Source: a virus
Lineage: Duplodnaviria; Caudoviricetes
Length of the DNA stretch: 64,000 nt
IMG/VR virus record: IMGVR_UViG_3300044295_000323
Location: 897 to 64,896 of that record
Direction: 5' to 3' (one strand)
The position numbers and the translations under genes were made by a program. The first letter of the stretch is position 1; the number at the start of each line of letters is the position of its first letter. The notes under the pieces were generated by a model. The model saw only the letters and a list, made by a program, of their open reading frames with translations, had not been told where the DNA came from and made no database searches. Positions 9,297 through 62,419 of the stretch are shown here, one piece after another.

Positions 9297-9300
9297 ATCG

Positions 9301-9420
9301 TTACCTACCCTTCCGCTCTGGTCTCGCCATGTACGCCACAAATACCAATCCCGCCAGCACGATCACAAGCGAGCCAATATCTCGGGCGTGATGATCCAAG
9401 AAATCCCACATGCTCATCAT
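9301..9420 (-). CDS. 39-aa membrane peptide (not in ORF track)
   Basis: IGSLVIVLAGLVFVAYMA TM segment; SD AAGGAG; ATGA overlap. Confidence 0.5.
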   Translation of the reverse strand: MMSMWDFLDHHARDIGSLVIVLAGLVFVAYMARPERKGR

Positions 9421-9751: not shown

Positions 9752-10168
9752 TTAGATCTTCCCGATTAAACGGCGGCGGGTAAAGTCCGCCACGACTTTG
9801 GCTGCGTTCGACGACGCCCGAGTGCAGGGCGCCGGTTTGAAGCGGTCACGGTAGGACTGCTTCTGGTTGTAGCGATAGATACACCACTGCCCCTTGAGCA
9901 TGTCGGGCAGGACTTTGACACCCGCATCTTCTTCTACCTGAGTGGTGGCTGGTCCGCGCACGGAGTACTGCAGGCCCTTCATGACGCGCTTTGACTTGCC
10001 GGTGGCCTTGGCATAACGTAAGACCCACCACTGGTCCGCGCATCCTGGGATGCGCTGACGCCATGAGCAATGCCAGGTGTCGCTGTCAGTGAACTGGCGC
10101 CACTCCCCGAGTGACTCGAACTCCGCTGGGATCCGTGGTAGCTGGTCCATGTATTCGTTGGTTGTCAT
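9752..10168 (-). CDS. Trp-rich early protein with C-terminal helix-LxG motif
   Basis: ends NAAKVVADFTRRRLIGKI; SD AAGGAG. Confidence 0.65.
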   Translation of the reverse strand: MTTNEYMDQLPRIPAEFESLGEWRQFTDSDTWHCSWRQRIPGCADQWWVLRYAKATGKSKRVMKGLQYSVRGPATTQVEEDAGVKVLPDMLKGQWCIYRYNQKQSYRDRFKPAPCTRASSNAAKVVADFTRRRLIGKI

Positions 10169-10253
10169 GTTCTCCTTCCCCTTTCATCTCGTCTAAGGCC
10201 CCTTTGGGCGGGTATGTCAGAGGGACCCTTATAAAGGGTCCCTGACATACCTA

Positions 10254-10649
10254 TTAGGTTTTGTCCCGATCTTCTTTCTTATCAACACTTACGGGTGTTC
10301 CACTTTCCGTTTCATCAACTTCGGTGGAATTGTTAGTAAGTAATTCAATCTCCTCCTGGTCGCTGGCCGCCCGGATGTCCTTCACATCCTCTGGGAACTT
10401 CAGCTCGATGCCGTTGTTGCCCCATCGCACGGGCCGGTGCTTACGGACGAACTCAGCGGCGGCCGCCCTGAGGACCACGGGCAAGGGCTGGAAGGTCGAC
10501 TGGCTGATCTTCATCAGCTTCTCGTGGATCTTCTTGGGCAGGCGGTAAGTGACTTGGACGGTCGGGCCCATCGAGGACTTGCCCCGCTTGCGGCCTGGCC
10601 GAGATTTCACCACGTCGTCGAACTCTGGGTAGTTAGGGTCGTATGCCAT
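10254..10649 (-). CDS. ribbon-helix-helix transcription regulator
   Basis: VQVTYRLPKKIHEKLMKIS...LPVVLRAAAAEFV RHH pattern; extended -10 TGGTATACT just upstream; long hairpin 10211-10251 downstream. Confidence 0.65.
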   Translation of the reverse strand: MAYDPNYPEFDDVVKSRPGRKRGKSSMGPTVQVTYRLPKKIHEKLMKISQSTFQPLPVVLRAAAAEFVRKHRPVRWGNNGIELKFPEDVKDIRAASDQEEIELLTNNSTEVDETESGTPVSVDKKEDRDKT

Positions 10650-10679
10650 AGTTGTTAGATAGTATACCACCCCCGGACG

Positions 10680-11069
10680 TTACGGATAATCTGTCCCACT
10701 GTTTGACAACAGCGCCAGTTCGGAATCTTCGAACTCGCAGCACTCGAACCTCGACAGCGCCACCACGGCCGACACCACCGCGTCCCACGTTCGGTAGCGG
10801 TCGTTCAGGATGAACCAAGGGCGGGAACCCAGGCTGGTGGCCCGCTTGTCATCCCGTATCACGATGTAGTAGAACTGGGGCCGGCACAGAATCCAGATAT
10901 TAGCGTTATTGTAGCACAGCCCATCCGGGCCCCCTTTGCTGTAGTACCACGCGTACTTGTCCGTATACGACTCCTGCCATTCGAATTGCGAGCGCCACGG
11001 TTCCGGCATGCGCCACTGCCGGCGCTTGGGCTCCGTCGGTTCGTCAACGGTGATTGTGTCAAGAGCCAT
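10680..11069 (-). CDS. Trp/Tyr-rich early protein
   Basis: SD AGGAGG; TWDAVVSAVVAL helix near the C-terminus. Confidence 0.6.
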   Translation of the reverse strand: MALDTITVDEPTEPKRRQWRMPEPWRSQFEWQESYTDKYAWYYSKGGPDGLCYNNANIWILCRPQFYYIVIRDDKRATSLGSRPWFILNDRYRTWDAVVSAVVALSRFECCEFEDSELALLSNSGTDYP

Positions 11070-11071
11070 TA

Positions 11072-11503
11072 CTAGGCACCTCCTGTCAGTCGAGCGGCAG
11101 CAACGGCCGCCATAATGGACTTCTCACTCGTGAGCCACTTGGTTGCTTGCCACTCCCCTTGTTCGAGCCAGAGGACTTTGTAGCGATCCTTGGGCCCGTA
11201 GGCGTGGCCCATGAGCCAGATGCCGTTATTCCAGACGACAGTGTTTCTCTCCAGCCTTGTCCCGTGCTTCCAGAACCACGTCCCGTCGCCTCCTTCGGAC
11301 CACGCGTTGAATGTCTTCCGAAGACCTGGCGGGCGAGCCGGCTGACGTGACTTGATCACTGACGCGTCAGAATTCCATGGTGGTTTTGTCACAGCTTGCG
11401 CCACTATGCGTGACGTAATCTGCTGCTGGAGTTGCTTTACAGCAGCGAGCTTGCCAAGCACGATGGTCTTCACGTGCCGTGAGACGAAGGACTTGGTCGC
11501 CAT
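11072..11503 (-). CDS. Trp-rich early protein with C-terminal helix-RLTG motif
   Basis: ends SEKSIMAAVAAARLTGGA. Confidence 0.65.
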   Translation of the reverse strand: MATKSFVSRHVKTIVLGKLAAVKQLQQQITSRIVAQAVTKPPWNSDASVIKSRQPARPPGLRKTFNAWSEGGDGTWFWKHGTRLERNTVVWNNGIWLMGHAYGPKDRYKVLWLEQGEWQATKWLTSEKSIMAAVAAARLTGGA

Positions 11504-12234
11504 TAGCGCACCAGCTCCGTCTTGCCGTCGTGAACGAAGCCGCCCTTGACACCCTCGGCCATACGGGCATTAGAGCCCTTCCACCGCAAGCCCACCACCA
11601 CGCCCTCAGGATCGAGAAACCGCAAGTCGTCCTTGTCCCCGTCGACGACCCGGAGCCACTTGCCCTGGACCTTCAACTTGGCCGGCAGCTTCCCATCCCG
11701 CCGCACATTGAAGACGACAGCCATGTTGATGCCGAACTGCAAGCAGTGTGCCAGGTCAGCCTTGGTCGTCTTCTCGCTCACGCTGTAGGTCAGGTGGTAG
11801 TTGTCGAGCACCCGGCGCCGGGGCACGGGGAGCTTGGTGTAGTCATAGAACTGCACCGTGGGATTCAGGTTGGCCAAGCTATGGGCCAGACCGGGCCGAT
11901 CGGAGAGCAGGTTCGGCCGGACCGCCAGCTTCTTGTGCGTCTTGGCCAAGGCCTTGATCTCCTTGTCGACCTTCGCGACGAAGCCCTTGTAGTCAGTCAT
12001 GTACTCCTGGGTCCGACGCGCCCGTGCCTTGACGCTGGCAGGAAACACATTCATCCCCGTCTTAGCCAGACAGACGTCGGCACACGTGCCGGCCATGGCA
12101 CACATGGTCGGTAGTGTCTTGCCCAAGACGAGCCCCGCTTCCGTGGCCGGGCTCAGGTTCAGTCCCACGGTTTTCCAGCCCCGGGCCTTGGACTTGTCGA
12201 GCTTGTATTGTGAGGTTGTCAAGTAACTAGCCAT
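11503..12234 (-). CDS. GP88-like phage protein
   Basis: LSPA...C-x5-C-x3-CL, QFYDYTK, NYHLTYS, DGDKDDLRFLD, VVGLRWKG. Confidence 0.7.
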   Translation of the reverse strand: MASYLTTSQYKLDKSKARGWKTVGLNLSPATEAGLVLGKTLPTMCAMAGTCADVCLAKTGMNVFPASVKARARRTQEYMTDYKGFVAKVDKEIKALAKTHKKLAVRPNLLSDRPGLAHSLANLNPTVQFYDYTKLPVPRRRVLDNYHLTYSVSEKTTKADLAHCLQFGINMAVVFNVRRDGKLPAKLKVQGKWLRVVDGDKDDLRFLDPEGVVVGLRWKGSNARMAEGVKGGFVHDGKTELVR

Positions 12235-12550
12235 CGTGATTACTCCTTTTCCAGATCGTACGTTTACGTTTAACTTCGGGTGTTGGGGCGTCTTCAGGGT
12301 CGAAGAGTCTGTTCATGCCGATGTCATTCTTGCAGAAGGCTTCACCAAGACCCCCATAATGCGCGCCGGCTTTGTTGCCGCACAGCGGGCACGGACCTAC
12401 GGCTGCATTGACTTCGTCCCAACAGTCAGAATCGTACAGACTCTCCTCTCCACGCAGAATTTTTAAGAGCGCCTCCATGTGGATGATCCACTCTTGTTTC
12501 TCTTTCTTGTAGTCTGGTGGTTTCTTCTTTGCTTTGCGCGTATGGGCCAC
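12227..12550 (-). CDS. hypothetical protein with CPLC-H-C motif
   Basis: CPLCGNKAGAH...FC. Confidence 0.55.
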   Translation of the reverse strand: MAHTRKAKKKPPDYKKEKQEWIIHMEALLKILRGEESLYDSDCWDEVNAAVGPCPLCGNKAGAHYGGLGEAFCKNDIGMNRLFDPEDAPTPEVKRKRTIWKRSNHDG

Positions 12551-12580
12551 TTCTTTCCTCCTGGTTTCAGGGCCACATGG

Positions 12581-13390
12581 CTACTTGCCCTCGCCTGTCA
12601 TGCGAAAGATGGCACCCTCGGCCGCCAACGTCGACGTGTCCACGTCCGGCAGTTCGATCGTCGTGCGCTCGGACTTCTTGGGCTTAGTGTCTACTCGCCC
12701 CACGATATCCTGTGGTACGTAGGCGCGGAACTGCGGCACCACCTTGATGATCTGGTTGACCGTCTTGTAGGTGTCGAGCAGCTTGGACACATCAGCCTGG
12801 ATCTTCTCCCACCGATCACGAATCTGCTCGGCCTCATCCATGAGCTCGATGTGGCGAGAGAGTTCCGTCACGCCGGGCAACTGCGGATAGGCCTGCCGAA
12901 TCGATTCAAACATGGCGACCGTGATCTGTGGTGTGGACAAGCGGTTGTCTGCCACCGCCGAACATGGACGTGAGTAGGCTGCGTGGGACGCCGGCGCATG
13001 CAGGAAGTCCTGGATGTGCGTGTAGCGATGGTTGTCCCGGCTGGGCGGCTTATCCCATCGGACGCCTTCCTTCTCGCGAGCCAACAATCGACGGAGCTCC
13101 GATGCTGTGTAGTCGTTCGACAGGTAGTACTCGGTGGACTTCGGCACAAAGATCTTCTTGGTGATGACGATCAGCCGCTCCTCTTCACCAAACAGATCGA
13201 GCCACCCCTTGGGGATCTTGTCGTAAAGATCCACGTGGGGGTACATGGACAGCCGGCTGATGAGCTCCGACATGTCCACGTTGGTCGTGTTGTTGTAGTC
13301 CGGCAGCTGCTCTTTCAGGGCGGTGGCGGTCATCTTCACCACCTGCTCGTCCACTCGCCGACGGACGTCTTTTGAAATCGTGACAATCAT
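12581..13390 (-). CDS. Nmad5-like protein with C-terminal helix-RMTG motif
   Basis: LLDTYKTVNQIIKVVPQFRAYVP resembles the Nmad5 signature; ends DTSTLAAEGAIFRMTGEGK; SD AAGGAG. Confidence 0.55.
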   Translation of the reverse strand: MIVTISKDVRRRVDEQVVKMTATALKEQLPDYNNTTNVDMSELISRLSMYPHVDLYDKIPKGWLDLFGEEERLIVITKKIFVPKSTEYYLSNDYTASELRRLLAREKEGVRWDKPPSRDNHRYTHIQDFLHAPASHAAYSRPCSAVADNRLSTPQITVAMFESIRQAYPQLPGVTELSRHIELMDEAEQIRDRWEKIQADVSKLLDTYKTVNQIIKVVPQFRAYVPQDIVGRVDTKPKKSERTTIELPDVDTSTLAAEGAIFRMTGEGK

Positions 13391-13403
13391 GTGTGACTCC
13401 TTT

Positions 13404-13961
13404 CTAGAGTTCCAACTGGAACGGTTGTGCGGTCCGAAGCTGATTGGCCAAACGCTTACGCTTCTCTTTCTGCGCTGAGTCCAAGCCAGGGTTGACAATC
13501 GCGGCGGCCTTCGCGACAAACAGCTTGTCATAGAAGTACAAGTGACCGTTCCGCAGTGCCTGTCCATCCAACGTGCCTATGTTATTGTGGTACGTGCGCT
13601 GGATGGAGTTGATCTGCGGCGCAGACAAGTTCTTGCCCAGCAAGTAGGCAGCATTGTCGGCCGCGCATAGGTCCTTCAACGCCTTGATCTGTTCCGGCGC
13701 TAACGTCTTGGGGTTCACCGAGAAGTAGGTGTCGTAGCCACGTAGGCCCAAATTGAGGGTGGCGCTCAGACGATGGGCGATCTTGTAGGCTTCACCCCGG
13801 CCCACACTATAGCCCTCTTCCAGCATCTTGATCACCGAGGAGCGAATCCTCGGTGAGAGTTTGCCGCCGTCAAAAACGGCGCTAGTGATGACGAGACCGG
13901 GCGTGCCGGCAAGTGCGCTCCATGCGAGTTGCTGTTCTCTCTCTTTATCCATTTTGATCAT
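13404..13961 (-). CDS. hypothetical protein
   Basis: 185-aa ORF tightly packed in the operon. Confidence 0.6.
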   Translation of the reverse strand: MIKMDKEREQQLAWSALAGTPGLVITSAVFDGGKLSPRIRSSVIKMLEEGYSVGRGEAYKIAHRLSATLNLGLRGYDTYFSVNPKTLAPEQIKALKDLCAADNAAYLLGKNLSAPQINSIQRTYHNNIGTLDGQALRNGHLYFYDKLFVAKAAAIVNPGLDSAQKEKRKRLANQLRTAQPFQLEL

Positions 13962-14232
13962 CCTTTCCTGTGAGTCTCCACACGATGTACTTCCGCTTGA
14001 GTTCTCGAAGCGTCTTGGCTTTCACGGTGCACATGGGATCTTTGCCGTTTATGTATTCAAGCTCCCAACGATACGCCATTTTTCTGCGTTTCTGATGCAG
14101 CCACATCCAACACACAAGGTTGGGGTTGTCAGTATAAGGTCCAAAGAACCAGTACTTTATGGCGGTTCCTTGCATCCGCACTGGCCGTTCATGAATAATC
14201 GAGGCAACGGCCCTATCAAGTCGCGTGATCAT
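13945..14232 (-). CDS. Trp-rich early protein with helix-RLTG motif
   Basis: ends TLRELKRKYIVWRLTGKDDQNG. Confidence 0.65.
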   Translation of the reverse strand: MITRLDRAVASIIHERPVRMQGTAIKYWFFGPYTDNPNLVCWMWLHQKRRKMAYRWELEYINGKDPMCTVKAKTLRELKRKYIVWRLTGKDDQNG

Positions 14233-14621
14233 TCTTCACACAGCTCCTTTCCCGCCAACCTATAGGCGGCGAACTTCGCCTTAAGTTGGTGTAGTTCCGT
14301 GGCTTCAATCGACCAGTCTTTAGCCGAGGCCCCATACACTGTCCCGTTGCGCACGACAATGGACTGCCACAGCTTCCACCCGTTCTTCGTCAGGGCCAGC
14401 CGGTAACAGCCAGAGTTCTTGTCATTCCAGTGCCACGACCAGTTGTCTGCATTCCACGTCACACGCTGGACTTCATTGATAGGGTCTTTGGCAAGCACTT
14501 TGTTGGGGATGAACTGTGGGAACCACTTGGCCACCACCATCTCGGCGCTCCGTGTCCGAGGCTGATACGGTGGGGGACACACCTGGTCGTAGTGCTCCCC
14601 ATGTCTATTTTTACTCGGCAT
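14229..14621 (-). CDS. Trp-rich early protein with helix-RLAG motif
   Basis: ends ELHQLKAKFAAYRLAGKELCEE. Confidence 0.65.
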   Translation of the reverse strand: MPSKNRHGEHYDQVCPPPYQPRTRSAEMVVAKWFPQFIPNKVLAKDPINEVQRVTWNADNWSWHWNDKNSGCYRLALTKNGWKLWQSIVVRNGTVYGASAKDWSIEATELHQLKAKFAAYRLAGKELCEE

Positions 14622-14952
14622 CCTTCACCTTTCCTGTCAGGCGATAGTAGGCGATACCCTCGACACACGGACGGATCGAACGGGACCACCCGGTGTTGAG
14701 ACCCACCCATGTCCCAGAACGCTTATCGGTGTCGTCCCAGGCCCACGCTCGCCACTCCACGCGATTCGGGCCAGAGATGCAGGCGATCTGGATGTTCCAG
14801 CCGCCGATGTACCACGCCATATAGTCATCGTTCCGAACTTCAGTCGCCGTAACAGCGTTGGAAAAGAGACGCCTGACAAGGGCGTCTCTTTTTTGTTGGG
14901 TATAGCGTCGATGCTTGAGGTCGTTCATGTTGTAGCACCTGCTACTTTCCAC
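14611..14952 (-). CDS. Trp-rich early protein with helix-RLTG motif
   Basis: ends SIRPCVEGIAYYRLTGKVKDAE; start may be 14928. Confidence 0.65.
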   Translation of the reverse strand: MESSRCYNMNDLKHRRYTQQKRDALVRRLFSNAVTATEVRNDDYMAWYIGGWNIQIACISGPNRVEWRAWAWDDTDKRSGTWVGLNTGWSRSIRPCVEGIAYYRLTGKVKDAE

Positions 14953-14961
14953 GCCGCATGG

Positions 14962-16257
14962 CTACTTCTCCTCGTGGATCGAGAAGGGGACGTGCTCGCC
15001 GTAGCCGGGCACGACCTGGGACGAGACGCACCACACCACGGGCACATCCACCGGACTGCTCGTGCTGAAGTCCGTGTAGCCATCCGTCAGGCAGACGATC
15101 ACCTCGACGTCTTGCAGCTTCTTCGCAATCCACCGGAAGCCCGCTTCCATATCGGTGCCACCGCCGGAGTAGAACTCCAGCTTCACCTCGTCGCCCTGCG
15201 CCGGCACGAACTCCAGGTGCTTCTGGACCTGGGTGTCCACATAGAGGACATGCACCTTGCTGGGGTTGCACTGCTCAATGATGCGTGCCATGTGGCCGGC
15301 GTAGTGCCGCAGTTCGATCTCGGAGATCGAGCCCGACACGTCGATCTGCAGGCAGATCTCGCCCATCATGGGCGTCTTGCCCACCCACGGCAGGTAGTGC
15401 TCGGTGTAGCGACGGTTGCGCTTGGCCCACGTGGACTCTGACCGGGCGAACGAGGTCATGTAGCGTTCGAGCTTCTCGTACCACGGCACCTTAGACTCGA
15501 TCAGTTCGGCCGCCCACTTGCCAATGGCACCGGGCAGCTTGCCCTGCATCTTGGCCGTCTGGGTGGCCTGCGCGATAGCGACCTTCATCTCGGCCTCCTG
15601 CTGCTTGGCCTGATCGGCCGTCATCGGGCCGCCCTTCTGCACCAGGTCACGGCCCACCCCGCCGATGGCCTGCCCGTGTCCGGGGCACTGGCAGGGTTGC
15701 CCACCCTTGCCGTGCTTGTGCTGCTTGGACTTCGACTTGCCCTGGCCCTGCTTGGACTGCTGTTGGCCCTGGCCCTGACCATCTTGCCCGCCATCGCCGT
15801 CCTGGCCTCCGCCCTGCTGCTGGTCGCCCACTTCGCCGCCGCACTGGGCGCACTTCACGGGCGGCAGTTCGTTGTAGATCTGGTCGGTCGTCTTGTCCTT
15901 GCTGCCCGGCATGTCGATGCCGCCCTCGATCATCTTGCCGATGCCGTCCTGCTTGAGCAAGTCGTTGATGAACGCATCGCCGGCGATGTTCCACTTCAGC
16001 TGGTGCCGATGGCCGAGACGTCCGGCGTGCTGGCACACCACGTGCATGACCTCATGGGCGAGGAGGAAGATCACTTCTTCCACGTCCATGTTCTCGATGA
16101 ACTTGGGGTTGTAGTAGATCTGTCCCCACTGATCGACGGCCGCCGTCGGGCACCACGGTTCGGTGACGGCGACGAGGGGACGTCTCAGCAAGATCGAGGC
16201 GAAGAACGGGTGCTGAAACACCATGTGCGCCTTAGCGCGTTCGAGAACTGTTGCCAT
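14962..16257 (-). CDS. metallopeptidase + VWA domain protein (DUF2201-like)
   Basis: HEVMH zincin motif, Gly/Gln linker, MIDAS DVSGS, GGGTD, LTDGY. Confidence 0.85.
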   Translation of the reverse strand: MATVLERAKAHMVFQHPFFASILLRRPLVAVTEPWCPTAAVDQWGQIYYNPKFIENMDVEEVIFLLAHEVMHVVCQHAGRLGHRHQLKWNIAGDAFINDLLKQDGIGKMIEGGIDMPGSKDKTTDQIYNELPPVKCAQCGGEVGDQQQGGGQDGDGGQDGQGQGQQQSKQGQGKSKSKQHKHGKGGQPCQCPGHGQAIGGVGRDLVQKGGPMTADQAKQQEAEMKVAIAQATQTAKMQGKLPGAIGKWAAELIESKVPWYEKLERYMTSFARSESTWAKRNRRYTEHYLPWVGKTPMMGEICLQIDVSGSISEIELRHYAGHMARIIEQCNPSKVHVLYVDTQVQKHLEFVPAQGDEVKLEFYSGGGTDMEAGFRWIAKKLQDVEVIVCLTDGYTDFSTSSPVDVPVVWCVSSQVVPGYGEHVPFSIHEEK

Positions 16258-16311
16258 TGGATTACGCTCCTTCCTGAACACTGACGTTGTTGTTATTCAC
16301 GTTTCCCACTG

Positions 16312-16497
16312 CTACCACATAACTCCTTGTCCGGCGAGGTAGAAGAACCACGCCGCGAATCCGAAACAGACTAATGCGATCCACCCGGTGCCGATCCGAC
16401 CCAGCATCATGTTGTCTGACATGAGGAACATCCACGCGTAGAAGTTCCAGCACCACACCAGACCGCACGCGACTTGTGACCACTTACTCCACGACAC
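16312..16497 (-). CDS. small two-TM membrane protein
   Basis: two hydrophobic segments; SD AAGGAG. Confidence 0.55.
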   Translation of the reverse strand: MSWSKWSQVACGLVWCWNFYAWMFLMSDNMMLGRIGTGWIALVCFGFAAWFFYLAGQGVMW

Positions 16498-16897
16498 GCG
16501 TGACTCCTTTCTTCTGTGTAGCCGATGCTACAGGCTCAAACTCGCCGGTCAACTTGAACACCGTCATGATCGCCACCACGTCTTCATCGGTGCGGCAGGC
16601 GACGTTCTTGGTCCCAGTACCGACATGATCAACAAGTCGAAGGACCCACCGGCGCCCAGTTCGTGAACCTTCCACTGGGCCTAGTACTCCTGGAGAATAG
16701 TCACTACTCCAGGTACGGAACTCGTCCGCCGTGGTGATGAAGATCCCCAGCTTTATATCGTTTTGCCGGCGATCACCCGGTTCTCTGTAGATCTGCCACC
16801 AGTCCCTAGCAACTGGACCGGGGGAGGTCAGGGGTACCGGAATCGGTACCCCTGAGTTGGTCGTCCGAACGATGCCATCTGGATTAGAAGATGACAT
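16484..16897 (-). CDS. early protein with helix-KLTG motif
   Basis: TDEDVVAIMTVFKLTGEF near the C-terminus. Confidence 0.6.
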   Translation of the reverse strand: MSSSNPDGIVRTTNSGVPIPVPLTSPGPVARDWWQIYREPGDRRQNDIKLGIFITTADEFRTWSSDYSPGVLGPVEGSRTGRRWVLRLVDHVGTGTKNVACRTDEDVVAIMTVFKLTGEFEPVASATQKKGVTRVVE

Positions 16898-17909
16898 CGG
16901 AGTTCTTCACCGTCCAGTCGATGAAGGCCTTGTTAGAGCGGAGCTTCTTGTCCCGCACCAGCGCGTCCTTCACGCACAGCACGCTGAATTCCTTGGGCAT
17001 CCGCGCCATGTAGTCGAGGACGAGGTTAAAGTTGGCCGGCGTGGCCTTGTTCGCCAACGCACCCGAGATGGCGTACTGTGTCGCCGGGTCGGTCGGGACC
17101 TTGGCCTTCTGCGGATTCTTCAACACCTCGTCCAAGTCCGGGAGGTTCATGTAGATGCGGCGGAAGCCGATGTACTCGGCGGCCGCACCCTCGCCCACCT
17201 CGCCCGCCACGTTGCCCATGTAGCAGGCTTCGTCGAGTGTGTCCGGAATCAGGCTGACCTTCTCCCAGCTACGGGGCGTCGGATTGCTGCTGCGGTTCGG
17301 GTCGAAGTCGAACAGCAGGTTCGGCTTGAAGCGCAGGAACTGGATCATGTCGGTGGGCAGGCCGTTCGGCTGGGCGAAGCCCTCAATCCAGTCGTCCAGG
17401 TTCACGTCGAAGTGGAGCATGCGGACGCGGTTGCCAAGCTTCGTCGACAGGCGATTGGCGCCCGACTTGTCCTCAGTGCGGTTGCCCGTGCAGACCACGT
17501 AAAGTTCGTCCGTGAGCTGCAGGTCGCCGACCCGCTTCTCCAACAGCAGGCCCGAGAGAACGTTCTGCACCGGCATTGTGCTGTCAGTGAACTCGTCCAA
17601 GATCAGGCTCGCCGGCCCCGTCCCCTTGCGGATGTTGTAGAGGATGGACGGCGGCACCCAACGCACCGACTCGCCACTCAGCTCCGGCAGCCCGAGAAAG
17701 TCGCACGTGTCGAGGTGGCTCGGGTGCATGAACAACTGGCGCTCCTTGGGAATCGCCTTGCCGTCCGACGCCACGAGTTCCTTGATCGCGTCCTTGGCCA
17801 CGCTCGTCTTGCCACCGCCGGGCGCGCCGGTGATGAGGAAGCGGACTTCGTGACCACGGGGAGCCGCGAACTGGGCGGCGAGGGACTTCTTGATTTGAGT
17901 GTAGCGCAT
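16884..17909 (-). CDS. MoxR-like AAA+ ATPase
   Basis: Walker A GAPGGGKT, Walker B LILDEF, TGNR sensor, LGNR, PTPRSW; VWA partner downstream. Confidence 0.85.
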   Translation of the reverse strand: MRYTQIKKSLAAQFAAPRGHEVRFLITGAPGGGKTSVAKDAIKELVASDGKAIPKERQLFMHPSHLDTCDFLGLPELSGESVRWVPPSILYNIRKGTGPASLILDEFTDSTMPVQNVLSGLLLEKRVGDLQLTDELYVVCTGNRTEDKSGANRLSTKLGNRVRMLHFDVNLDDWIEGFAQPNGLPTDMIQFLRFKPNLLFDFDPNRSSNPTPRSWEKVSLIPDTLDEACYMGNVAGEVGEGAAAEYIGFRRIYMNLPDLDEVLKNPQKAKVPTDPATQYAISGALANKATPANFNLVLDYMARMPKEFSVLCVKDALVRDKKLRSNKAFIDWTVKNSDVIF

Positions 17910-17985
17910 GGTGTGATTCTCCTCAGTCGTGGGGTTTCTTTATCGTAGGTCTCCCACGGTCCTACGCACAGCCAGTAGCACCATG

Positions 17986-18306
17986 CTACTGGTCTGTATC
18001 TTGTGGACACCCGGTAAGGAGTTCCGCCACAAGGGCGGCCCTCAACTCATCCCAGGTATCAAATCGTTGAACAGGCCTATCCGAGTTGTAGTAGCGCAAC
18101 CACAAAGGTTGTGCAGGATAGCCAATTTGCTCTTCGTCTTGTGCCACTTTTATGCCGATCTGCACACCGACGTTACCTATGTAGCCACGATAGTTTGTCC
18201 AATCACCATTGGCATCATACCGCTGTCTGTCGAGCGTGCGGTAGAATCCCCACTCATTGAGCTGCTCTATGACGGTGTCGAGTTCTTCCGGTGTTAGGGC
18301 TGGCAT
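17986..18306 (-). CDS. early protein with helix-LLTG motif
   Basis: ends TWDELRAALVAELLTGCPQDTDQ; SD GAGG. Confidence 0.6.
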   Translation of the reverse strand: MPALTPEELDTVIEQLNEWGFYRTLDRQRYDANGDWTNYRGYIGNVGVQIGIKVAQDEEQIGYPAQPLWLRYYNSDRPVQRFDTWDELRAALVAELLTGCPQDTDQ

Positions 18307-18572
18307 GTGTCGTCCTCGTTGTCTTCGATTCCCAAGTGAAAGAGTAGCACACGGCGGACAAGTTCCTCTTCGGATGTCAGGCCGATGCTGCACACATTGC
18401 TCGTATCGTAGGATGTGTGCGTGGCGCATACGTCGCCCTGGGCAGTTCTCAGAATCCACCACCCTGGACCGGTGTTTGTTCCTGTCGACGCCCACATGGT
18501 AGTCCCACGTGTGGTATTGCGCTCGGGAATTTTCTTGAGTTGTAGCTTTGCTACAAGTTCGTCCAGCGTCAT
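18294..18572 (-). CDS. early protein, weak motif variant
   Basis: SEEELVRRVLLFHLG; SD GGAG. Confidence 0.55.
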   Translation of the reverse strand: MTLDELVAKLQLKKIPERNTTRGTTMWASTGTNTGPGWWILRTAQGDVCATHTSYDTSNVCSIGLTSEEELVRRVLLFHLGIEDNEDDTCQP

Positions 18573-18576
18573 GGCG

Positions 18577-18945
18577 TTACGATCTCCAGAATTGCCACCA
18601 CCGCTTGGGTGCAGGGTGGACTGGGGGGCGCGGCTCGAACCACTGACCTTCGATGTTGCACAGGTAATCCATGTTGTGCCCATTCCGCAACACCGAACAG
18701 TACTTAAACGAGTGTTGTGTTTGCTTGGGATTTCTGCATTCGTCGAAATTAGCTATGCCGCGTAGAGTACACAGCGCCTGCCGGTACCAATGAATGCAAT
18801 CCACGCAGCGCTTCTCCTCGACGCCGTGTTCGAGCAAGTAGATGATGCGCTCCTGGGTGCGGCGCTCATGGAGCTCGCGCACTAATTCCTTGACGAGCAG
18901 GCGCGGGAAGAATCGCAGTAAAAACGCACGTTTGAACTTCTGCAT
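18577..18945 (-). CDS. Cys-rich protein (CxDC..., KRWW tail)
   Basis: CVDCIH...LCNIEGQWFEP...KRWWQFW; paralog of 7388..7669. Confidence 0.65.
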   Translation of the reverse strand: MQKFKRAFLLRFFPRLLVKELVRELHERRTQERIIYLLEHGVEEKRCVDCIHWYRQALCTLRGIANFDECRNPKQTQHSFKYCSVLRNGHNMDYLCNIEGQWFEPRPPVHPAPKRWWQFWRS

Positions 18946-19064
18946 TAGACTTCTCCTGTCAGACGCCACGCCACGAAGCGGGCCTCGGCCTCTTTCAGGC
19001 CCACGTTGTTGGCAATCTTCACTGTATTTGCATAACCGGGGTAGCCCAAGTAGATGCGCCACAC
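18945..19064 (-). CDS. 39-aa peptide with helix-RLTG motif (not in ORF track)
   Basis: MWRIYLGYPGYANTVKIANNVGLKEAEARFVAWRLTGEV; TAATG overlap with the next gene. Confidence 0.55.
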   Translation of the reverse strand: MWRIYLGYPGYANTVKIANNVGLKEAEARFVAWRLTGEV

Positions 19065-19113
19065 ATTTCGTTAATATGGAGTGGGAATTTCTTCCAGACG
19101 TCGCCGCCTAGTG

Positions 19114-19147
19114 AACGAAAGCCCCAGGTATGGAAGATACCTGGGGC
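19114..19147 (-). terminator. intrinsic terminator
   Basis: GCCCCAGGTAT-CTTCC-ATACCTGGGGC then TTTCGTT. Confidence 0.6.
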
Positions 19148-19187
19148 CTTGACGGTCGTTCGTGTCGTGCTTCATCTCATGTGCTCC

Positions 19188-19667
19188 TTAGACGTGGTAA
19201 GTCAGCGTCTTACGACCGCTGCCCTTGCACGCGGGACACGGTTCGTTCGCGTTGTCGGCACTGTGCCCGAGTCCATTGCACGCCTGGCACTTGGGGGCCG
19301 GCACCTGCGGACTCACGATCTCCGTGTTCGGGGGCGCGGCGTGGAACCCAATGCGCACCGACTTGGACTTGACATTGCGGCTGCCGCTCGGGGTCTCACC
19401 CACCTCGTCATCCTCGGCGCTCATGTGGCGTTTCAAGTTCTTGAGCATAATGCCCGCCCCCAACGCGGACCCCTCGGCCCCCTTGCGCAGGGCCGGCATC
19501 ATGTCCCATAGGTAAGCGGCCAAGATCAGGGCCGTCACGACTATGCCCAAGATCTGGGTGGGATAGTCCATGCCAGCCTGGCGCAAGATCCATCCGACCT
19601 CGATGCCCCCGCCGACGACGATGGTGAGGTCTGCGATCAGCGCCACACCGGTGAAGAATGTTTTCAT
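19188..19667 (-). CDS. two-TM membrane protein with DnaJ-type Zn finger
   Basis: CQACNGLG and CPACKGSG repeats; SD AAGGAG. Confidence 0.65.
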   Translation of the reverse strand: MKTFFTGVALIADLTIVVGGGIEVGWILRQAGMDYPTQILGIVVTALILAAYLWDMMPALRKGAEGSALGAGIMLKNLKRHMSAEDDEVGETPSGSRNVKSKSVRIGFHAAPPNTEIVSPQVPAPKCQACNGLGHSADNANEPCPACKGSGRKTLTYHV

Positions 19668-19714
19668 ACGTGTCTCCTTTTCTTTTTGCTACGTTGACCA
19701 GGATGTAGCACCTG

Positions 19715-20026
19715 CTACACCTCTGTGGGAGATTCACCTGTTAGACGCCACACGGTGAACCATTGATACACTTGCATCCAGTCGTCCGTCATGGGAGATG
19801 CTTGTATTATTTTATTCGTGGCTTGGTCTGTGGTGTAGAGGGCCGCGAATGAGCGATCTGCCGACAGCCAAATGAGAGACTCCCCGTTGGTAGTCGCCTT
19901 GGCAATGAAGATGCGCCACGAGATGTCGGTAAACCTTTCGTTGTTCGTGGCCCACCGAAATTCGGACTCCCGCCCAGATAGGGCACCCACCGGGATGGGA
20001 TAATCCGCTAACTTTCTTAAGGCCAT
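19715..20026 (-). CDS. early protein with helix-RLTG motif
   Basis: ends DWMQVYQWFTVWRLTGESPTEV. Confidence 0.6.
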   Translation of the reverse strand: MALRKLADYPIPVGALSGRESEFRWATNNERFTDISWRIFIAKATTNGESLIWLSADRSFAALYTTDQATNKIIQASPMTDDWMQVYQWFTVWRLTGESPTEV

Positions 20027-20340
20027 GTGAACTCTGGGTAGGTGAACTTCAGCCACACCACGTAGGCAATCAGGTCCCGGTCGGTCTTGAACGATTTGTC
20101 CTTCGGGGTACTGGCCCCCTCAAAGAAGATACGTATGACCCACTTCGCCCCCTTGATCGTGGCCCGATCGCTTTTCGCCAACGGCTTCGAAACCATCTTG
20201 TAGTGTTCGACGGTCGTGATGTAGATGCGGGGGCCGCCGAACGTGGCCTGTTTTGTCAATAACCACCAGCTCCACGTAGCCCACGTGGTGGGGATGGGAA
20301 ACGTGCCCGTGTTGATGTGGTCTCGTTTAGCGTCGGCCAT
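20017..20340 (-). CDS. Trp-rich early protein, motif variant
   Basis: TDRDLIAYVVWLKFTY. Confidence 0.55.
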   Translation of the reverse strand: MADAKRDHINTGTFPIPTTWATWSWWLLTKQATFGGPRIYITTVEHYKMVSKPLAKSDRATIKGAKWVIRIFFEGASTPKDKSFKTDRDLIAYVVWLKFTYPEFTWP

Positions 20341-20473
20341 AGTCCCACCAGTTCTCTTGTTGATGGGTCGTCGCAATCGCTACAGTCCCAAGGCCTTCCA
20401 GATAGGGGTCAGCTCGATATTTCTTGAACCAATAGAACCAGCCCCATTTGTAGCGTTTCCACTTTGGCTTCAC
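20327..20473 (-). CDS. 48-aa Trp/Lys-rich peptide (not in ORF track)
   Basis: MKPKWKRYKWGWFYWFKKYRADPY...; SD AAAGGAG; GTGA overlap. Confidence 0.5.
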   Translation of the reverse strand: MKPKWKRYKWGWFYWFKKYRADPYLEGLGTVAIATTHQQENWWDYGRR

Positions 20474-20772
20474 TTGTGTGCTCCTTTCTTCAAACGTGGC
20501 GCCAGGTTCTGGCAGAGACGACTGGCCCTTAACCAGCGGTCTAACGTGTAGCGTGTGCTACAGGTATCGATCTGGCGATAGATGCCCAGCGTTAGGTTGG
20601 ACGTGCCCCGTGTGGGTGTCGTCTTCATCATCTTGGTGTGCAGATGGGGGCCCGAGAGATTCTTCCATAGTCCGAGCTTCCCATATTGGAGCTCCCGCTT
20701 CAGTGCGACCAACTGCCACTTCTTGGCGTTGGCCTTGGGCCCTTGGGCAATGAGCGAATAACGCATCAGCAT
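20470..20772 (-). CDS. early protein, weak motif variant
   Basis: TRYTLDRWLRASRLCQ; SD AGGAG. Confidence 0.5.
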   Translation of the reverse strand: MLMRYSLIAQGPKANAKKWQLVALKRELQYGKLGLWKNLSGPHLHTKMMKTTPTRGTSNLTLGIYRQIDTCSTRYTLDRWLRASRLCQNLAPRLKKGAHK

Positions 20773-21113
20773 GGGGCAACTCCTGTCATGATGAGGACGG
20801 CGAGATCTGCAAGGGCATCCTCGGGGCGGCGTCGGCCACAATAGGGACCATTCATATAGTTGCGCGCACCGTTCTTATCGGGGGGCCCGAGCTTGTGAAT
20901 GAGCCACTCTCCGTTGCGCATGTTGTAATCGTCGGACTTATTGTTCTCATCTTTGCAGAACACGAGCAGGTATTCACCATCGGGTGATCGCCACGACGCA
21001 TACCAACTTCCCGGTCTCGCGTAATGATCGTTCCACCAGTCGGTGCCAAGAACGTCGAACTCCTTGGGCAGCTCTTTCGGCACAGGCACTGGCAACGCCT
21101 TTCGTCGGCTCAT
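20766..21113 (-). CDS. Trp-rich early protein with helix-IMTG motif
   Basis: ends RPEDALADLAVLIMTGVAPC. Confidence 0.65.
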   Translation of the reverse strand: MSRRKALPVPVPKELPKEFDVLGTDWWNDHYARPGSWYASWRSPDGEYLLVFCKDENNKSDDYNMRNGEWLIHKLGPPDKNGARNYMNGPYCGRRRPEDALADLAVLIMTGVAPC

Positions 21114-21466
21114 AGAATAGTCCCCAGCAAATTGGCCCGCACAACTAGGAGATTGATGTGGTCTAGGCTACGGACGGGCACAGACTCTATATAGTCGCCC
21201 TCTTCGTTGGGCCTTAAGAGATAGAGACTGACAGTCCATGTTGAGGTATCACGATCCACGTAGAGGTTACCGACACCCTTAACTTCCCGATTCGCGTTGA
21301 AATAGATGCCGCTACAGGGTGGCGTTGCATTGCACCTATAGAACTGCGGCAATTCGTGGTGTGGGCACGAGATGTAGACATCGAAGCCGCGCCGATGGAG
21401 CTCCAGGGCCCACCGACGCGCCTTCCGAACGTGACGTTTCGCTTTCATCTTTTGTTGAACCTCCAA
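21110..21466 (-). CDS. early protein with helix-NLLG motif
   Basis: ends SLDHINLLVVRANLLGTIL. Confidence 0.6.
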   Translation of the reverse strand: MEVQQKMKAKRHVRKARRWALELHRRGFDVYISCPHHELPQFYRCNATPPCSGIYFNANREVKGVGNLYVDRDTSTWTVSLYLLRPNEEGDYIESVPVRSLDHINLLVVRANLLGTIL

Positions 21467-21517
21467 ATGGAGACCCAGGGGTAGGAAGCTTCCACCTCCT
21501 ACCCTAGGGACTACACT

Positions 21518-21778
21518 CTAGGCCGCCACGTCGACCTGCTGCTCCTCCTTGCTGCTGGGAAAGGGCTTGCCCGTGTCGTCGCAGTTGATACGCCGCCGGT
21601 GGTTGATGATCGCACCCTCGCTGTGCTGCGTCACGCGGCGCTCGTCCTTCTTACCGCGCTTGGAACCCCGGCTGTGCGCCCGGAGCTTGCCCGTCTTGGG
21701 GTCCTTCTTGCTGAAGTAACGGGCGATGGCGCCCCGCTTGCCGGGATTACCCTGCTTGATCTTGTTCGCCTTCGGCAT
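21518..21778 (-). CDS. highly basic small protein
   Basis: SD AAGGAAGGAG; Lys/Arg-rich. Confidence 0.65.
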   Translation of the reverse strand: MPKANKIKQGNPGKRGAIARYFSKKDPKTGKLRAHSRGSKRGKKDERRVTQHSEGAIINHRRRINCDDTGKPFPSSKEEQQVDVAA

Positions 21779-21795
21779 TGCTGGTGTCTCCTTCC

Positions 21796-22080
21796 TTAGT
21801 ACTTGCTGTTGATTTGCGGGATGGCCGTGGTCATCTGGATGCGCAACTGGCCCACAGTCAAGTTGCACACCTGCGGAAACTCCGCGTTATCGAGCTCGAT
21901 GCAGATGACCGCGTCCGCCTTGACGGCGCGGTCGATGTTGATCTGCGCGGACGACGAGGGGCCAGGGGTGGTGTCGTCGTGGGCGTAGGGCCCGGGGTCC
22001 CGACGCCCATGAACGCCACTGTCACAGGCCGCCGTCACCGTGACGGCCATGACAATAGCAATAATCGACTTCGTGTGCAT
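21796..22080 (-). CDS. putative lipoprotein
   Basis: MHTKSIIAIVMAVTVTAAC lipobox; SD AGGAGG. Confidence 0.6.
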   Translation of the reverse strand: MHTKSIIAIVMAVTVTAACDSGVHGRRDPGPYAHDDTTPGPSSSAQINIDRAVKADAVICIELDNAEFPQVCNLTVGQLRIQMTTAIPQINSKY

Positions 22081-22137
22081 CGAATGGAGCCTCCTGAGCT
22101 CCGTGTGTGTAGCACCTGCTACAACCTTGTTGGGCGT

Positions 22138-22476
22138 CTACTCTTCTGAGACGCCAAAGATTTTGCTGAGATACAGGTTTCGACACTTTGCGAGGCTCTT
22201 ATGGTCGGCCTCAATACGCACATTGCCTCGTGAAGAGCCCATAATCCACTTGTTGTTGTAGTAAAAGACTTGGAACCAGTTGTACCCTTGTTGTTTCACA
22301 ACTTCCCAGATGCCATACTTGAAATCAGGGTCCCACTCCTTCGGTTTATAGGTCCACGACAGGTGGCCGAAGTGGGCTTGAAGTTGTTTCGGGAGTAGCT
22401 TGGTCTGTGGCTTCTTGATGCTGATGCTGCGGCGTTTACGCGTTTTCATTCCCATTCTCCCAAAATTCGATGCCAC
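22138..22476 (-). CDS. Trp-rich early protein, motif variant
   Basis: ends SLAKCRNLYLSKIFGVSEE; start may be about 22456. Confidence 0.6.
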   Translation of the reverse strand: MASNFGRMGMKTRKRRSISIKKPQTKLLPKQLQAHFGHLSWTYKPKEWDPDFKYGIWEVVKQQGYNWFQVFYYNNKWIMGSSRGNVRIEADHKSLAKCRNLYLSKIFGVSEE

Positions 22477-22515
22477 TCTGGACTCAGGGTGAGGAATTCA
22501 CTGGGAAGCTTCATT

Positions 22516-22815
22516 TTAGACCCACTCTCCCGTCAGCACTAGCGCGGCGATTTCGGCCTTCATTTGCTCTGGTGTCTCGGTCGCGATGAAGAGTCTGCTA
22601 CCACCAGTGCCATACCCAAATCGAACAAGACGCCATTTGCCATAATGTCCGTAGTTACCGCGCCAGCGCGGACTCAGCAAGTAGAAGCCGCGTTGGCTGT
22701 CGTCGTGCTCGTCGGTATACCACCAGCGCCCACCGTCGACTTCACTGCTGCCTTTCTTCCACGCCGCGGTGTCGGCGAGACACTCGGGAAATGTATCAGA
22801 TGCGACAACGCTCAT
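22516..22815 (-). CDS. Trp-rich early protein with helix-VLTG motif
   Basis: ends TPEQMKAEIAALVLTGEWV; SD GGAG. Confidence 0.65.
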   Translation of the reverse strand: MSVVASDTFPECLADTAAWKKGSSEVDGGRWWYTDEHDDSQRGFYLLSPRWRGNYGHYGKWRLVRFGYGTGGSRLFIATETPEQMKAEIAALVLTGEWV

Positions 22816-22892
22816 TCGATTTCTCCGGTCAAGCAATGGAGGATCAGCGCCCTGGCCATGGCTTCACGATGGGCAATAGTCGGACTTGCCAT
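22812..22892 (-). CDS. 26-aa peptide that is essentially the helix-LTG motif (not in ORF track)
   Basis: MASPTIAHREAMARALILHCLTGEIE; ATGA overlap with 22516..22815. Confidence 0.5.
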   Translation of the reverse strand: MASPTIAHREAMARALILHCLTGEIE

Positions 22893-23039
22893 CGCTTCGT
22901 GTGACGGGATAGGTGGTTTTCATCAGGATAGCTCCTAAGTTTGTAGCACCTGCTACAACAGCGGACAGAAGGCACGGCACACACGAATACACACCACTAC
23001 ACTACGCGTTAAAAGATGCTGACGGGGACTTCGACGATA

Positions 23040-23264
23040 CTACTGGCGAACGATGGGATAGTCGCTGAGGTGCCACGCGAACGCGGCCAACACGACGACC
23101 AGGGTACCCATGATCGCGACGAGCAACTGGATGATGTCCATCGGCCGGCCAAACGCGCCAAAGACGACGGCGAGCATGACAAACAGATAGACGAGCATCC
23201 AGATAACTGATCGGCGCCACTGCACGAGGGCACTGGCGTGGCGGAGATTAAGCAGGTCTGACAT
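23040..23264 (-). CDS. two-TM membrane protein
   Basis: two hydrophobic segments; SD GAGG. Confidence 0.6.
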   Translation of the reverse strand: MSDLLNLRHASALVQWRRSVIWMLVYLFVMLAVVFGAFGRPMDIIQLLVAIMGTLVVVLAAFAWHLSDYPIVRQ

Positions 23265-23266
23265 GC

Positions 23267-23554
23267 TCAATTCCTCACGATCCAGAGCAACACCACCACC
23301 AACCAAAAGGCGAGTGGTGGTGTAGCAAGTGCTGCACACCAGCGTTTCCACGTGTATTTCTTCTTCGTGAACGGGGTCATGGTCAAGATGCTGACGATGG
23401 CGTTCACCGCAAACCACGCGGTGGCCGACAACTGCGGCAACTCTGGCATCAGGAGGTTGATCTTCCAGATGAACCAGGACTCCCACATCATGGAGAGCAG
23501 GCCAAACAGTGGTAGCACGAGTAACGCCACCAACAGGCTGAAGATTTCTAACAT
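23267..23554 (-). CDS. multi-TM membrane protein
   Basis: three hydrophobic segments; SD AAAGGAG. Confidence 0.6.
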   Translation of the reverse strand: MLEIFSLLVALLVLPLFGLLSMMWESWFIWKINLLMPELPQLSATAWFAVNAIVSILTMTPFTKKKYTWKRWCAALATPPLAFWLVVVLLWIVRN

Positions 23555-23673
23555 AGGGACTCCTTTCGTAGGTGTGTCCCCATGTGCCGTGCCTACTATC
23601 CACTGTTGCTGATAGGTAGTATGCAACCTAGAGGACCCGAAATGTAGCAGATGCTACAGGTGGATTTCTAACG

Positions 23674-23874: not shown

Positions 23875-23998
23875 CTTTGGAGCTCCTTTTACTGGGCTCT
23901 AGGCTGGATACTACCTACCCGCAACGGTGTAGCACGTGCTACAAACGGACGCGATGGGCACAATGGGAGACACCCCTGGCCTTGGGGTTTAATGGTGA

Positions 23999-62406: not shown

Positions 62407-62419
62407 GCCTATATGATGC

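Follow-up and report, generated by a model that had tools for sequence, protein, structure and literature searches.

Why do many small proteins encoded side by side in one phage finish in the same 16-residue helix? The question arises from a stretch of 64,000 nucleotides, here called the window, which covers bases 897-64896 of the complete 64,896-bp virus record IMGVR_UViG_3300044295_000323 (Duplodnaviria; Caudoviricetes; direct terminal repeats). Near-identical DNA is present in freshwater metagenome runs from several studies. Minus-strand genes occupy two stretches, one reading from about 25.6 kb down to position 1 and the other from 64 down to 55.2 kb, and the structural genes lie between them on the plus strand. 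The array considered here, at 9.7-22.9 kb, is part of the minus-strand arm, which also encodes replication functions (a DNA polymerase, a ribonucleotide reductase and a primase/helicase-like protein), and its genes are called early because of this genomic position. An initial annotation had proposed that at least 14 dissimilar early proteins carry one C-terminal module, a helix ending in (R/K)LTG, as a portable tag for a hub formed by a MoxR ATPase and a VWA-peptidase encoded in their midst. We find that the motif itself is real and far above chance, and modelling suggests that the helix plugs these proteins into the phage's own MoxR ATPase machine.

The strict motif [RK][LM]TG occurs 11 times across all six frames of the window. 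Seven of these occurrences lie in minus-strand open reading frames (ORFs) between 11,081 and 19,736, each 2-19 residues ahead of the stop codon. Six of the 103 strand-consistent ORFs carry the motif within their last 25 residues, compared with a mean of 0.136 and a maximum of 3 in 2000 shuffles, and one occurrence was found in the other 17,391 residues outside those ends. The motif is therefore enriched over shuffled controls and over the rest of the proteome. A 16-column position-specific scoring matrix (PSSM) was made from the 14 copies, and in a scan that includes the copies themselves it gave 15 windows at or above 18 bits, against 0.0 in 30 shuffles. Each copy was also left out in turn and scored against 81,798 non-member 16-mers from the six frames. 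In this leave-one-out test nine of the 14 copies were equalled or exceeded by at most three non-members. When the last four columns were dropped, the copies in genes 14229 and 22516 still had no equal and that in gene 13945 had six, so the similarity spans the helix. Genes are named here by the low end of their coordinates, which is the stop codon; the positions first given for the copies are these ends, and the modules lie 9-60 nucleotides (nt) further in.

The nine solid copies are distributed as follows, all on the minus strand like the rest of the array. Gene 11072 (11072-11503) encodes a family member of 143 amino acids (aa) with the module at 11081-11128, ending ARLTG (leave-one-out score 14.8, two non-members as high). 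Family members are also encoded by gene 13945 (13945-14232; 95 aa; module 13966-14013, WRLTG; 22.7, none as high) and gene 14229 (14229-14621; 130 aa, or 103 aa as P0008; 6.2% Trp; module 14250-14297, YRLAG; 20.3, none as high). The member from gene 16484 (16484-16897; 137 aa; module 16544-16591, FKLTG; 15.1, two as high) continues for a 19-residue tail. Gene 17986 (17986-18306) encodes a module-bearing protein of 106 aa (module 18010-18057, ELLTG; 16.9, one as high), with a coding signal from about codon 61 of a 169-codon ORF. Three further family members are encoded by genes 19715 (19715-20056; 113 aa, or 103 aa as P0006; module 19736-19783, WRLTG; 16.5, one as high), 20766 (20766-21113; 115 aa; module 20781-20828, LIMTG; 13.0, three as high) and 22516 (22516-22836; 99 aa as P0003; module 22528-22575, LVLTG; 24.9, none as high), the last being the copy that we modelled. 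The remaining solid copy, at 18945-19064, is a 39-codon ORF that is hardly more than the module (18954-19001, WRLTG; 19.9, one as high), with a coding signal of 0.78-0.98. A 34-codon ORF (MKHDT…) lies upstream of it in the same frame (18945-19190 for the pair) with a single stop between them, and the two may be a family member split by a nonsense codon. Just after gene 22516, a 22-codon ORF at 22445-22513 ends …RILGEWE, resembling the …LVLTGEWV end of 22516, and may be a duplication remnant.

The other five copies are less secure. Gene 9752 (9752-10168; 138 aa, or 132 aa as P0002; 4.3% Trp) has a weak module at 9761-9808, ending RRLIG (leave-one-out score 5.6, 86 non-members as high), and its protein matches the family profile at E 1e-14. 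The match of family member 14611 (14611-14952; 113 aa; 6.2% Trp; module 14632-14679, YRLTG; 5.9, 79 as high) rests on RLTG. Gene 12581 (12581-13390) encodes a 269-aa protein of another build that ends FRMTG (module 12593-12640; 9.3, 17 as high), with a coding signal beginning near codon 60 of the long ORF. The copy at 22812-22919 (module 22824-22871; 4.4, 161 as high) is doubtful; its open frame counts 35 codons (26 if read from ATG) and lacks a coding signal. Finally, the ANLLG end (21122-21169) of gene 21110 (21110-21466; 118 aa) scored -0.8 with 1028 non-members as high and is not supported as a motif copy, but its whole domain matches the family profile at E 8e-15. The same short terminal element thus stands on several proteins, in nine solid and four weaker copies out of the 14 proposed; overall, the motif is confirmed in about ten copies and weak in the rest.

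Are the carriers unrelated proteins that share a tag? By pairwise sequence they are indeed dissimilar: BLASTP among the carriers linked only 16484 and 20017 (E 1.5e-4 over 107 aa). By Trp content, size, tandem position and predicted build they are alike. Trp makes up at least 4.3% (4.3-6.3%) of 10 of the 14 flagged carriers, compared with 7 of 89 other ORFs. Family members are 95-143 aa long and tandemly arranged, with genes abutting at 9752-11503, 13945-14952, 19715-21466 and 22138-22919. When the module was cut off, 5 of 12 members still matched the profile of the others (0, 9, 25, 42 and 42 of 500 shuffles as high), and for 20766 none of the 500 shuffles reached its score. The carriers are probably fast-diverging copies of one small protein, so that the proposal of a portable element on otherwise unrelated proteins is not supported: most carriers form one tandem family in which the helix is integral, and orthologues keep the whole domain. 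The 12581 protein, put forward as an unrelated tagged carrier, is clearly different in build, but as a motif copy it is statistically weak. Its label as Nmad5-like (PF18757) was not borne out, with 18.7 bits over 50 residues against a Pfam gathering cut-off of 27, and two further searches found no homologues of it.

The occurrence of the element is family-restricted, and in the sets searched the family appears to be an orphan limited to this phage lineage. A profile of 12 members gave nine matches at E<=0.001 in 1.84 billion cluster representatives and seven in a 5.8-billion word-indexed set, in both cases only the phage's own proteins and close variants (P0007, P0008 and P0011). Pfam, PHROGs and NCBIfam contained no match for any family member. 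A sequence search of the PDB with the family profile returned only the AP-2 appendage at E about 1, a chance match, and a search of viral contigs with P0007 returned none. Matches of P0011 (L006 and L007) proved to be a terminase small subunit sharing one 8-mer, and one metagenome match (L005) was out of frame on a histidine-kinase contig. Feature matches in the ESM Atlas, at 0.79-0.84, were at the level of shuffled proteins, and its structure rows were inconsistent between two members.

Two members were modelled with AlphaFold2 using the paralogues as alignment. The 22516 domain was predicted to have five strands followed by a helix at residues 67-80, which is the module (predicted local distance difference test, pLDDT, 71.0; predicted template modelling score, pTM, 0.58). 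For 13945, strands at 19-21, 24-27, 40-48, 53-62 and 65-72 preceded a helix at 75-88, again the module (pLDDT 67.5, pTM 0.55). Orthologues P0007 and P0011 keep strands and helix, that is, the whole C-terminal domain; P0011 is the orthologue of 11072. Because the carriers share an architecture and belong to an orphan family, we regard the helix as part of a fold and not as a free tag.

The best structural neighbours of the 22516 model are small sheet-plus-helix proteins: Rv3902c (4O6G; Z 7.1, root-mean-square deviation (rmsd) 2.9, 70 aligned), PsiB (3NCT; Z 6.4, rmsd 2.7, 77 aligned) and AcrIIA11 (9UTM; Z 5.9, rmsd 2.7, 75 aligned). All of these Z values are below 8, the level of a common arrangement, with 4-21% identity and no hidden Markov model (HMM) match. 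Foldseek placed PsiB first for this model (E 0.17, probability 0.94, TM 0.54), all below a clear level. The Atlas's own model of the 22516 protein also listed PsiB (TM 0.63), and the 13945 model gave Z 5.0 with it. The top-50 lists of the two models, against 48,161 PDB representatives, had nine entries in common, and BFVD contained no match at E<=0.001 for either. We read PsiB, Rv3902c and AcrIIA11 as a likeness of build in the models, not as evidence for kinship or function; no member had a Pfam match to PsiB (PF06290) at E up to 10. A WGR domain came into question because of its element order, strands and then one helix ending near a Gly, and it is of similar size. No HMM match to WGR (PF05406) at E up to 10 was found in the whole record or in 16 member proteins, and the WGR domain of PARP3 ranked 44 for the 13945 model (Z 4.0) and was absent from the top 50 for 22516, and a WGR assignment was therefore dropped.

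The conserved positions of the module fall on two faces. Among the nine solid copies, position 5 is hydrophobic in all nine, position 9 bulky hydrophobic in all nine and position 12 aromatic or Leu in eight, and these three lie on one helix side (i, i+4, i+7). The opposite side carries Ala at position 7 (7/9), a small residue at 10 (8/9), Ala or Val at 11 (9/9) and Leu or Met at 14 (9/9). The end is R/K13 in six copies, Thr15 in eight and Gly16 in all nine. One face is enough for a helix to pack on its own sheet, and the conservation of a second, small-residue face suggests a second packing partner.

A candidate partner is encoded within the array. Gene 16884 (16884-17909) encodes a MoxR-like AAA+ ATPase of 341 aa that belongs to AAA_5 (PF07728; 22.5 bits against a cut-off of 22), matches phrog_1297 'ATPase' at E 2.8e-64, contains a P-loop (GAPGGGKT) together with LILDEF, and is 31-34% identical to GenBank phage proteins annotated as MoxR-like ATPase. 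Its residues D299, Y300, R303, M304 and E307 are invariant in five of five aligned homologues of 25-34% overall identity. Two genes away, 14962-16281 encodes a metallopeptidase-like domain fused to a VWA domain (439 aa; DUF2201_N E 9.6e-46, DUF2201 E 2.8e-19) with an HExxH motif, HEVMH, at residues 76-80. Both genes have the architecture of MoxR/vWA chaperone-cochaperone pairs, an AAA_5 ATPase with a DUF2201_N-DUF2201 protein. Published accounts of RavA-ViaA and NorQ-NorD describe such pairs acting on dedicated targets. According to one report, group 2.2 jumbo phages encode a MoxR-vWA pair whose vWA protein has an N-terminal metallopeptidase, with a proposed role in virion assembly and peptidolytic processing (PMC7824862); the pair described here differs in lying inside an early-gene array and not among structural genes. 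A second report states that the MoxR ATPase gene of phage Bas54 is required to overcome a predicted defence system (PMC13716836). Our literature search found no account of small proteins sharing a docking or terminal helix in connection with a MoxR-vWA pair.

A separate observation concerns the N4-like Vibrio phage D456 g1 (OZ195695.1; locus L009, 2541-5632), in which a run of hypothetical genes of 50-90 aa lies upstream of a MoxR/VWA pair. Many of these small genes end in a C-x-x-C motif and represent another tandem small-protein family. Motif and fold differ from those of the array, and a tie of the D456 g1 proteins to MoxR is not implied. The VWA protein of D456 g1 bears the annotation 'HNH endonuclease', which phrog_1314 has too and which seems mistaken.

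One complex was modelled, in which the 341-aa MoxR-like ATPase and the 439-aa metallopeptidase-VWA protein were joined by the 22516 domain, the last with the family alignment. The interaction prediction score from aligned errors (ipSAE) was 0.67, 0.68 and 0.65 in three runs that agreed in at least 90% of contacts, with a partner pLDDT of at least 61. Two unrelated partners gave 0.00 and exchange of the VWA-peptidase for an unrelated protein gave 0.16, so that the margin over the best control is +0.51. The partner residues in contact are 68-69, 71-73, 75-76 and 78-81, corresponding to module positions 3, 4, 6, 7, 8, 10, 11 and 13-16, and residues 70, 74 and 77 (positions 5, 9 and 12) make no contact. 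On MoxR the contacts are V310, V313, K314, L317, V318, R324, S325, F329, I330, T333, V334, S337, I340 and F341; the site, 310-341, consists of two amphipathic helices at the extreme C-terminus and directly follows the invariant D299-E307 residues. The VWA-peptidase contributes F22, which touches module positions 13-14. From these contact lists, the model puts the conserved and otherwise unexplained helix face on a conserved part of the ATPase. The claim that the conserved end links many proteins to a MoxR/VWA hub is in this respect backed for one member, whose predicted complex passes its controls through the conserved positions. This amounts to support for binding, not to a demonstration of it.

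The explanation that we put first, at a little under an even chance, is that this is a diversifying paralogue family whose terminal helix is both a structural element and a docking surface for the MoxR/VWA-peptidase machine. In this account a family of small early proteins, specific to this lineage, would have expanded in tandem and diverged fast, its members sharing a build in which a Trp-rich antiparallel beta-meander is closed by one C-terminal amphipathic helix. The bulky face of the helix (positions 5, 9 and 12) would pack on the protein's own sheet, and the other face (Ala7, the small residues 10 and 11, R/K13, Leu14, Thr15 and the Gly16 cap) would form a common docking surface, conserved across paralogues as the rest of each protein drifted beyond pairwise recognition. 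As receptor, the model points to the C-terminal helical hairpin of MoxR (310-341), which is conserved and lies beside the N-terminus of the metallopeptidase-VWA protein. The variable beta parts may give each member a different target or cargo, and every member would then serve the one ATPase/peptidase machine as an exchangeable adaptor or as a substrate. Within this account the enrichment of the motif, its restriction to the family, both conserved faces and the codon pattern are observations, the fold and the docking come from models, and the adaptor or substrate role is inferred.

Contigs from other freshwater runs (X3-X6), read where they cover the array, align with it as a mosaic: 16 base differences over 13900-16182 and 25 over 16786-20289, compared with 22 over 16470-16663, 38 over 20762-21092 and 55 over 22515-22859. 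A contig from run X3 joins 21092 directly to 21433, skipping 340 bases (21093-21432) with 25 other letters between, so gene 21110 is missing from it. In another contig, a 122-base stretch of gene 16484 (16664-16785) is replaced by 119 different bases. Through this deletion and replacement, gene content varies within the array. Among the 40 of 263 variant rows listed, four of five changes in the 14611 module (from another freshwater run) and all six in the VWA-peptidase gene are synonymous. The mosaic pattern points to a variable region around a stable MoxR/VWA core. A bolder extension, which we consider unlikely as it stands, is that the MoxR/VWA pair is a programmable machine served by at least ten diversifying adaptors that plug in through one C-terminal helix, each bringing a different host protein, for example a defence component, for remodelling or cleavage; the strain-level gain, loss and replacement would then be the trace of an arms race.

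Several results weigh against docking as a common function, and some of them also favour the leading alternative, in which the helix is structural only. That alternative, somewhat unlikely in our judgement, holds that the proteins are diverged paralogues of a small alpha+beta fold with no common partner, that S/T-x-x-E and the Gly serve as N-cap and C-cap, and that the complex result is a false positive from a sticky helix and the exposed hairpin of a monomeric MoxR. The same architecture is predicted for both modelled members and orthologues keep the whole domain, as it would expect. The two models share one alignment, and hence are not independent, and are of middling confidence, which counts against the docking account. 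The parts upstream of the module gave hhalign scores no better than shuffled in 78 pairs (p = 0.18), and 7 of 12 members had no significant match to the others' profile once the module was cut off. P0007, a 76% identical orthologue of 22516, reads LMG, with Met for the conserved Thr. The distribution is also uneven: tblastn finds MoxR homologues in 725 GenBank phage records but the family is limited to this lineage, so the hub evidently works elsewhere without it. Of the MoxR loci examined, the three in IMG/VR (23-24% identity) and the N4-like Vibrio phage locus lack the motif; related phages were also sought with the VWA protein, which returned none, and with the DNA polymerase, which returned one 5.8-kb contig not reaching the array. 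Small early proteins that stand in tandem and share a short motif are also found elsewhere, as with the Cys-motif family upstream of MoxR in D456 g1.

The complex model has its own weak points. It covers one member, one arrangement and a monomeric MoxR, and of 157 solved complexes 116 attain the ipSAE mark, as do 2 of 215 mismatched pairs, counts that hold only roughly for a three-chain prediction with its own alignment. Replacing the VWA-peptidase lowered the score to 0.16 though nearly all contacts are with MoxR, for which the contact list offers no explanation. MoxR acts as a hexamer, and surfaces that the assembled form covers may lie open in a monomer; if the hairpin, which is hydrophobic, is one of them, it could draw in any hydrophobic helix that is exposed. 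The structural alternative leaves two things unaccounted for, however. A single face would suffice, yet no columns of the family are better conserved than the second face (Ala7, 10/11, Leu14) and the R/K-L-T-G end, and it is exactly this second face that the complex model used, with its wide margin over the best control. We retain the reading in which the helix, as an integral part of one predicted fold, serves both purposes; the idea of a conserved element that ties a diversified set of proteins to the MoxR/VWA-peptidase hub survives.

In a further alternative, which we rate as improbable, the helix is a processing or degradation signal that would offer the post-Gly tail of 2-19 residues to the metallopeptidase, or mark the protein for timed removal like a C-terminal degron, a special case of the hub idea with the members as substrates and not as adaptors. 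Throughout the array the module stands 2-19 residues from the C-terminus, and the neighbouring VWA protein has an HExxH metallopeptidase-like domain whose residue 22 contacts module positions 13-14 in the model. Peptidolytic processing has been proposed for the MoxR/peptidase-vWA pair of jumbo phages (PMC7824862). Against this, the tails are largely set by the Shine-Dalgarno sequence of the next gene, so that a protein-level meaning is not required, and the complex model reported no contacts around the active site of the peptidase. A C-terminal signal is also at odds with two proteins outside the array, as their module-like helices are on the N-terminal side of a Trp-containing, strand-rich part. 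One, at 2202-2591 on the minus strand, has the helix near its N-terminus (PSSM 20.1, the top non-member window) and a coding signal from about codon 21-31; the other, at 55249-55614 on the minus strand (PSSM 11.5), has a coding signal only from near codon 101-111 of a 228-codon ORF.

The small-residue face might instead drive homo- or hetero-oligomers, helix against helix. Helices that pack closely on each other typically show a stripe of Ala and Val such as the one at positions 7, 10, 11 and 14, but self-association explains the R/K-L-T-G cap no better than docking does, and we give it only a slim chance.

The codons of the module bear on whether the motif could arise at the nucleotide level. 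The synonymous variation described in the initial annotation applies to the Leu and Arg codons, which vary freely, but not to those for Thr and Gly. In 7 of 11 copies Thr is written ACA, a codon with 14-17% usage in the genome, and in 8 of 14 Gly is written GGA, which has 11-14% usage, so that ACA and GGA are used at 4-5 times the rate predicted from the genome. As read at the junctions, all eight GGA codons (in 11072, 13945, 14229, 14611, 18945, 20766, 22812 and 22516, the last ahead of the 22-codon ORF) lie inside an AGGA or GGAG stretch 4-11 nt ahead of the next start codon. In 11072 the ACA-GGA-GG end is the Shine-Dalgarno sequence of the next gene, in 22812 GGA GAA is that of gene 22516, and 21110 has GGGGA at the same position. 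Because the array genes abut, the Gly codon and the purine-rich tail double as the ribosome-binding site of the next gene in 8-9 of the 14 copies, and a nucleotide-level constraint is thereby added to the protein-level one. The overlap accounts for which codons are chosen and for the tails coded by purines (G-E…, G-K-E/D…), not for the motif. Five copies without a downstream start (9752, 12581, 16484, 17986 and 19715) keep the terminal Gly as GGG, GGC, GGC, GGG and GGT, respectively, and four of them retain L/M-T-G, with 9752 reading L-I-G; the Thr-Gly codons in this group include ACC GGC (16484), ACC GGG (17986) and ACA GGT (19715). These five copies, and the mostly synonymous changes in the 14611 module, speak for selection at the protein level. 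A nucleotide-level origin, with the motif arising as a side effect of ribosome binding for the following gene, of translational coupling or of a linker for recombination at gene boundaries, draws on the GGA placement and the skewed ACA and GGA usage, but as a full explanation it is largely refuted and very improbable, given the Gly retained with other codons, the free variation at Leu and Arg, twelve further helix columns conserved in amino-acid character, and intergenic Shine-Dalgarno sites of the same region that are not preceded by the rest of the motif.

Other genes of the array belong, or may belong, to the family without its canonical end. Gene 20017 (20017-20376; 5.9% Trp) is a family member by profile (E 5e-9) with a module ending LKFTY and no Gly, and 22138 (22138-22476; 112 aa) encodes a family-like protein (profile E 6.5e-12; 25 of 500 shuffles as high once the module is removed) with a degenerate LYLSK end. 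Two genes are possible members: 10680 (10680-11069; 129 aa, 5.4% Trp), which aligns with the family, lacks the LTG end and has no library family match, and 18294 (18294-18683), a weak variant ending …RRVLLFHLG (PSSM 7.8) with WW and strand-like stretches ahead of the helix.

The surroundings of the array hold further features. A palindrome, GTAGCA-NN-TGCTAC, occurs at 12 sites with at most one mismatch, compared with 0.08 expected, all within 14.9-25.0 kb (14932-24950). The sites are mostly intergenic in the early arm (for example 19705-19718, 22109-22122, 22943-22956, 23929-23942 and 24305-24318), and the palindrome is probably an operator or other regulatory site. Scans for sigma-70 promoters and terminators gave counts not above shuffles, a search of the phage for transfer RNA (tRNA) genes found none, and megablast against GenBank phages gave no match to phage DNA. 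On the minus strand, 19188-19667 encodes a 159-aa protein with hydrophobic N-terminal stretches and a C-terminal CxxCxGxG zinc-finger motif of DnaJ/anti-TRAP type, with matches below cut-off, and 8571-9341, adjoining the array, encodes a Trp-rich protein with a sub-threshold C-terminal DUF551 match (19.4 bits against a cut-off of 22). Also on the minus strand, an HNH endonuclease gene (61972-62421) directly adjoins the ribonucleotide reductase gene (60080-61975).

MoxR/peptidase-VWA pairs are present in hundreds of sequenced phages, and small proteins sharing a docking helix would, if the reading is true, provide a first handle on the targets of the MoxR machine. Even if docking is wrong, the array is a clean example of a phage with more than a dozen early genes for one orphan family, in which sequence drift has erased all but one helix, a part of which is under a double constraint through the ribosome-binding site of the next gene.

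Two known systems invite comparison. Closest in mechanism are the terminal docking peptides familiar from AAA+ machines, in the ClpX-binding tails of SspB, RssB and UmuD and the HbYX tail of proteasome activators. In those systems, as proposed for the array, dissimilar proteins are tethered to a single ATPase machine by a short conserved stretch at one end. Those tails are flexible peptides. The array differs in using a helix that forms part of a folded domain, in the paralogous nature of its carriers, in the MoxR class of its ATPase and in a binding that is modelled. The capsid-targeting signal of the T4 internal proteins is likewise a short shared terminal sequence on otherwise non-homologous phage proteins. 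It is N-terminal, directs proteins to the prohead and is removed; the element described here is, in contrast, C-terminal, predicted to be helical and part of an early-gene family.

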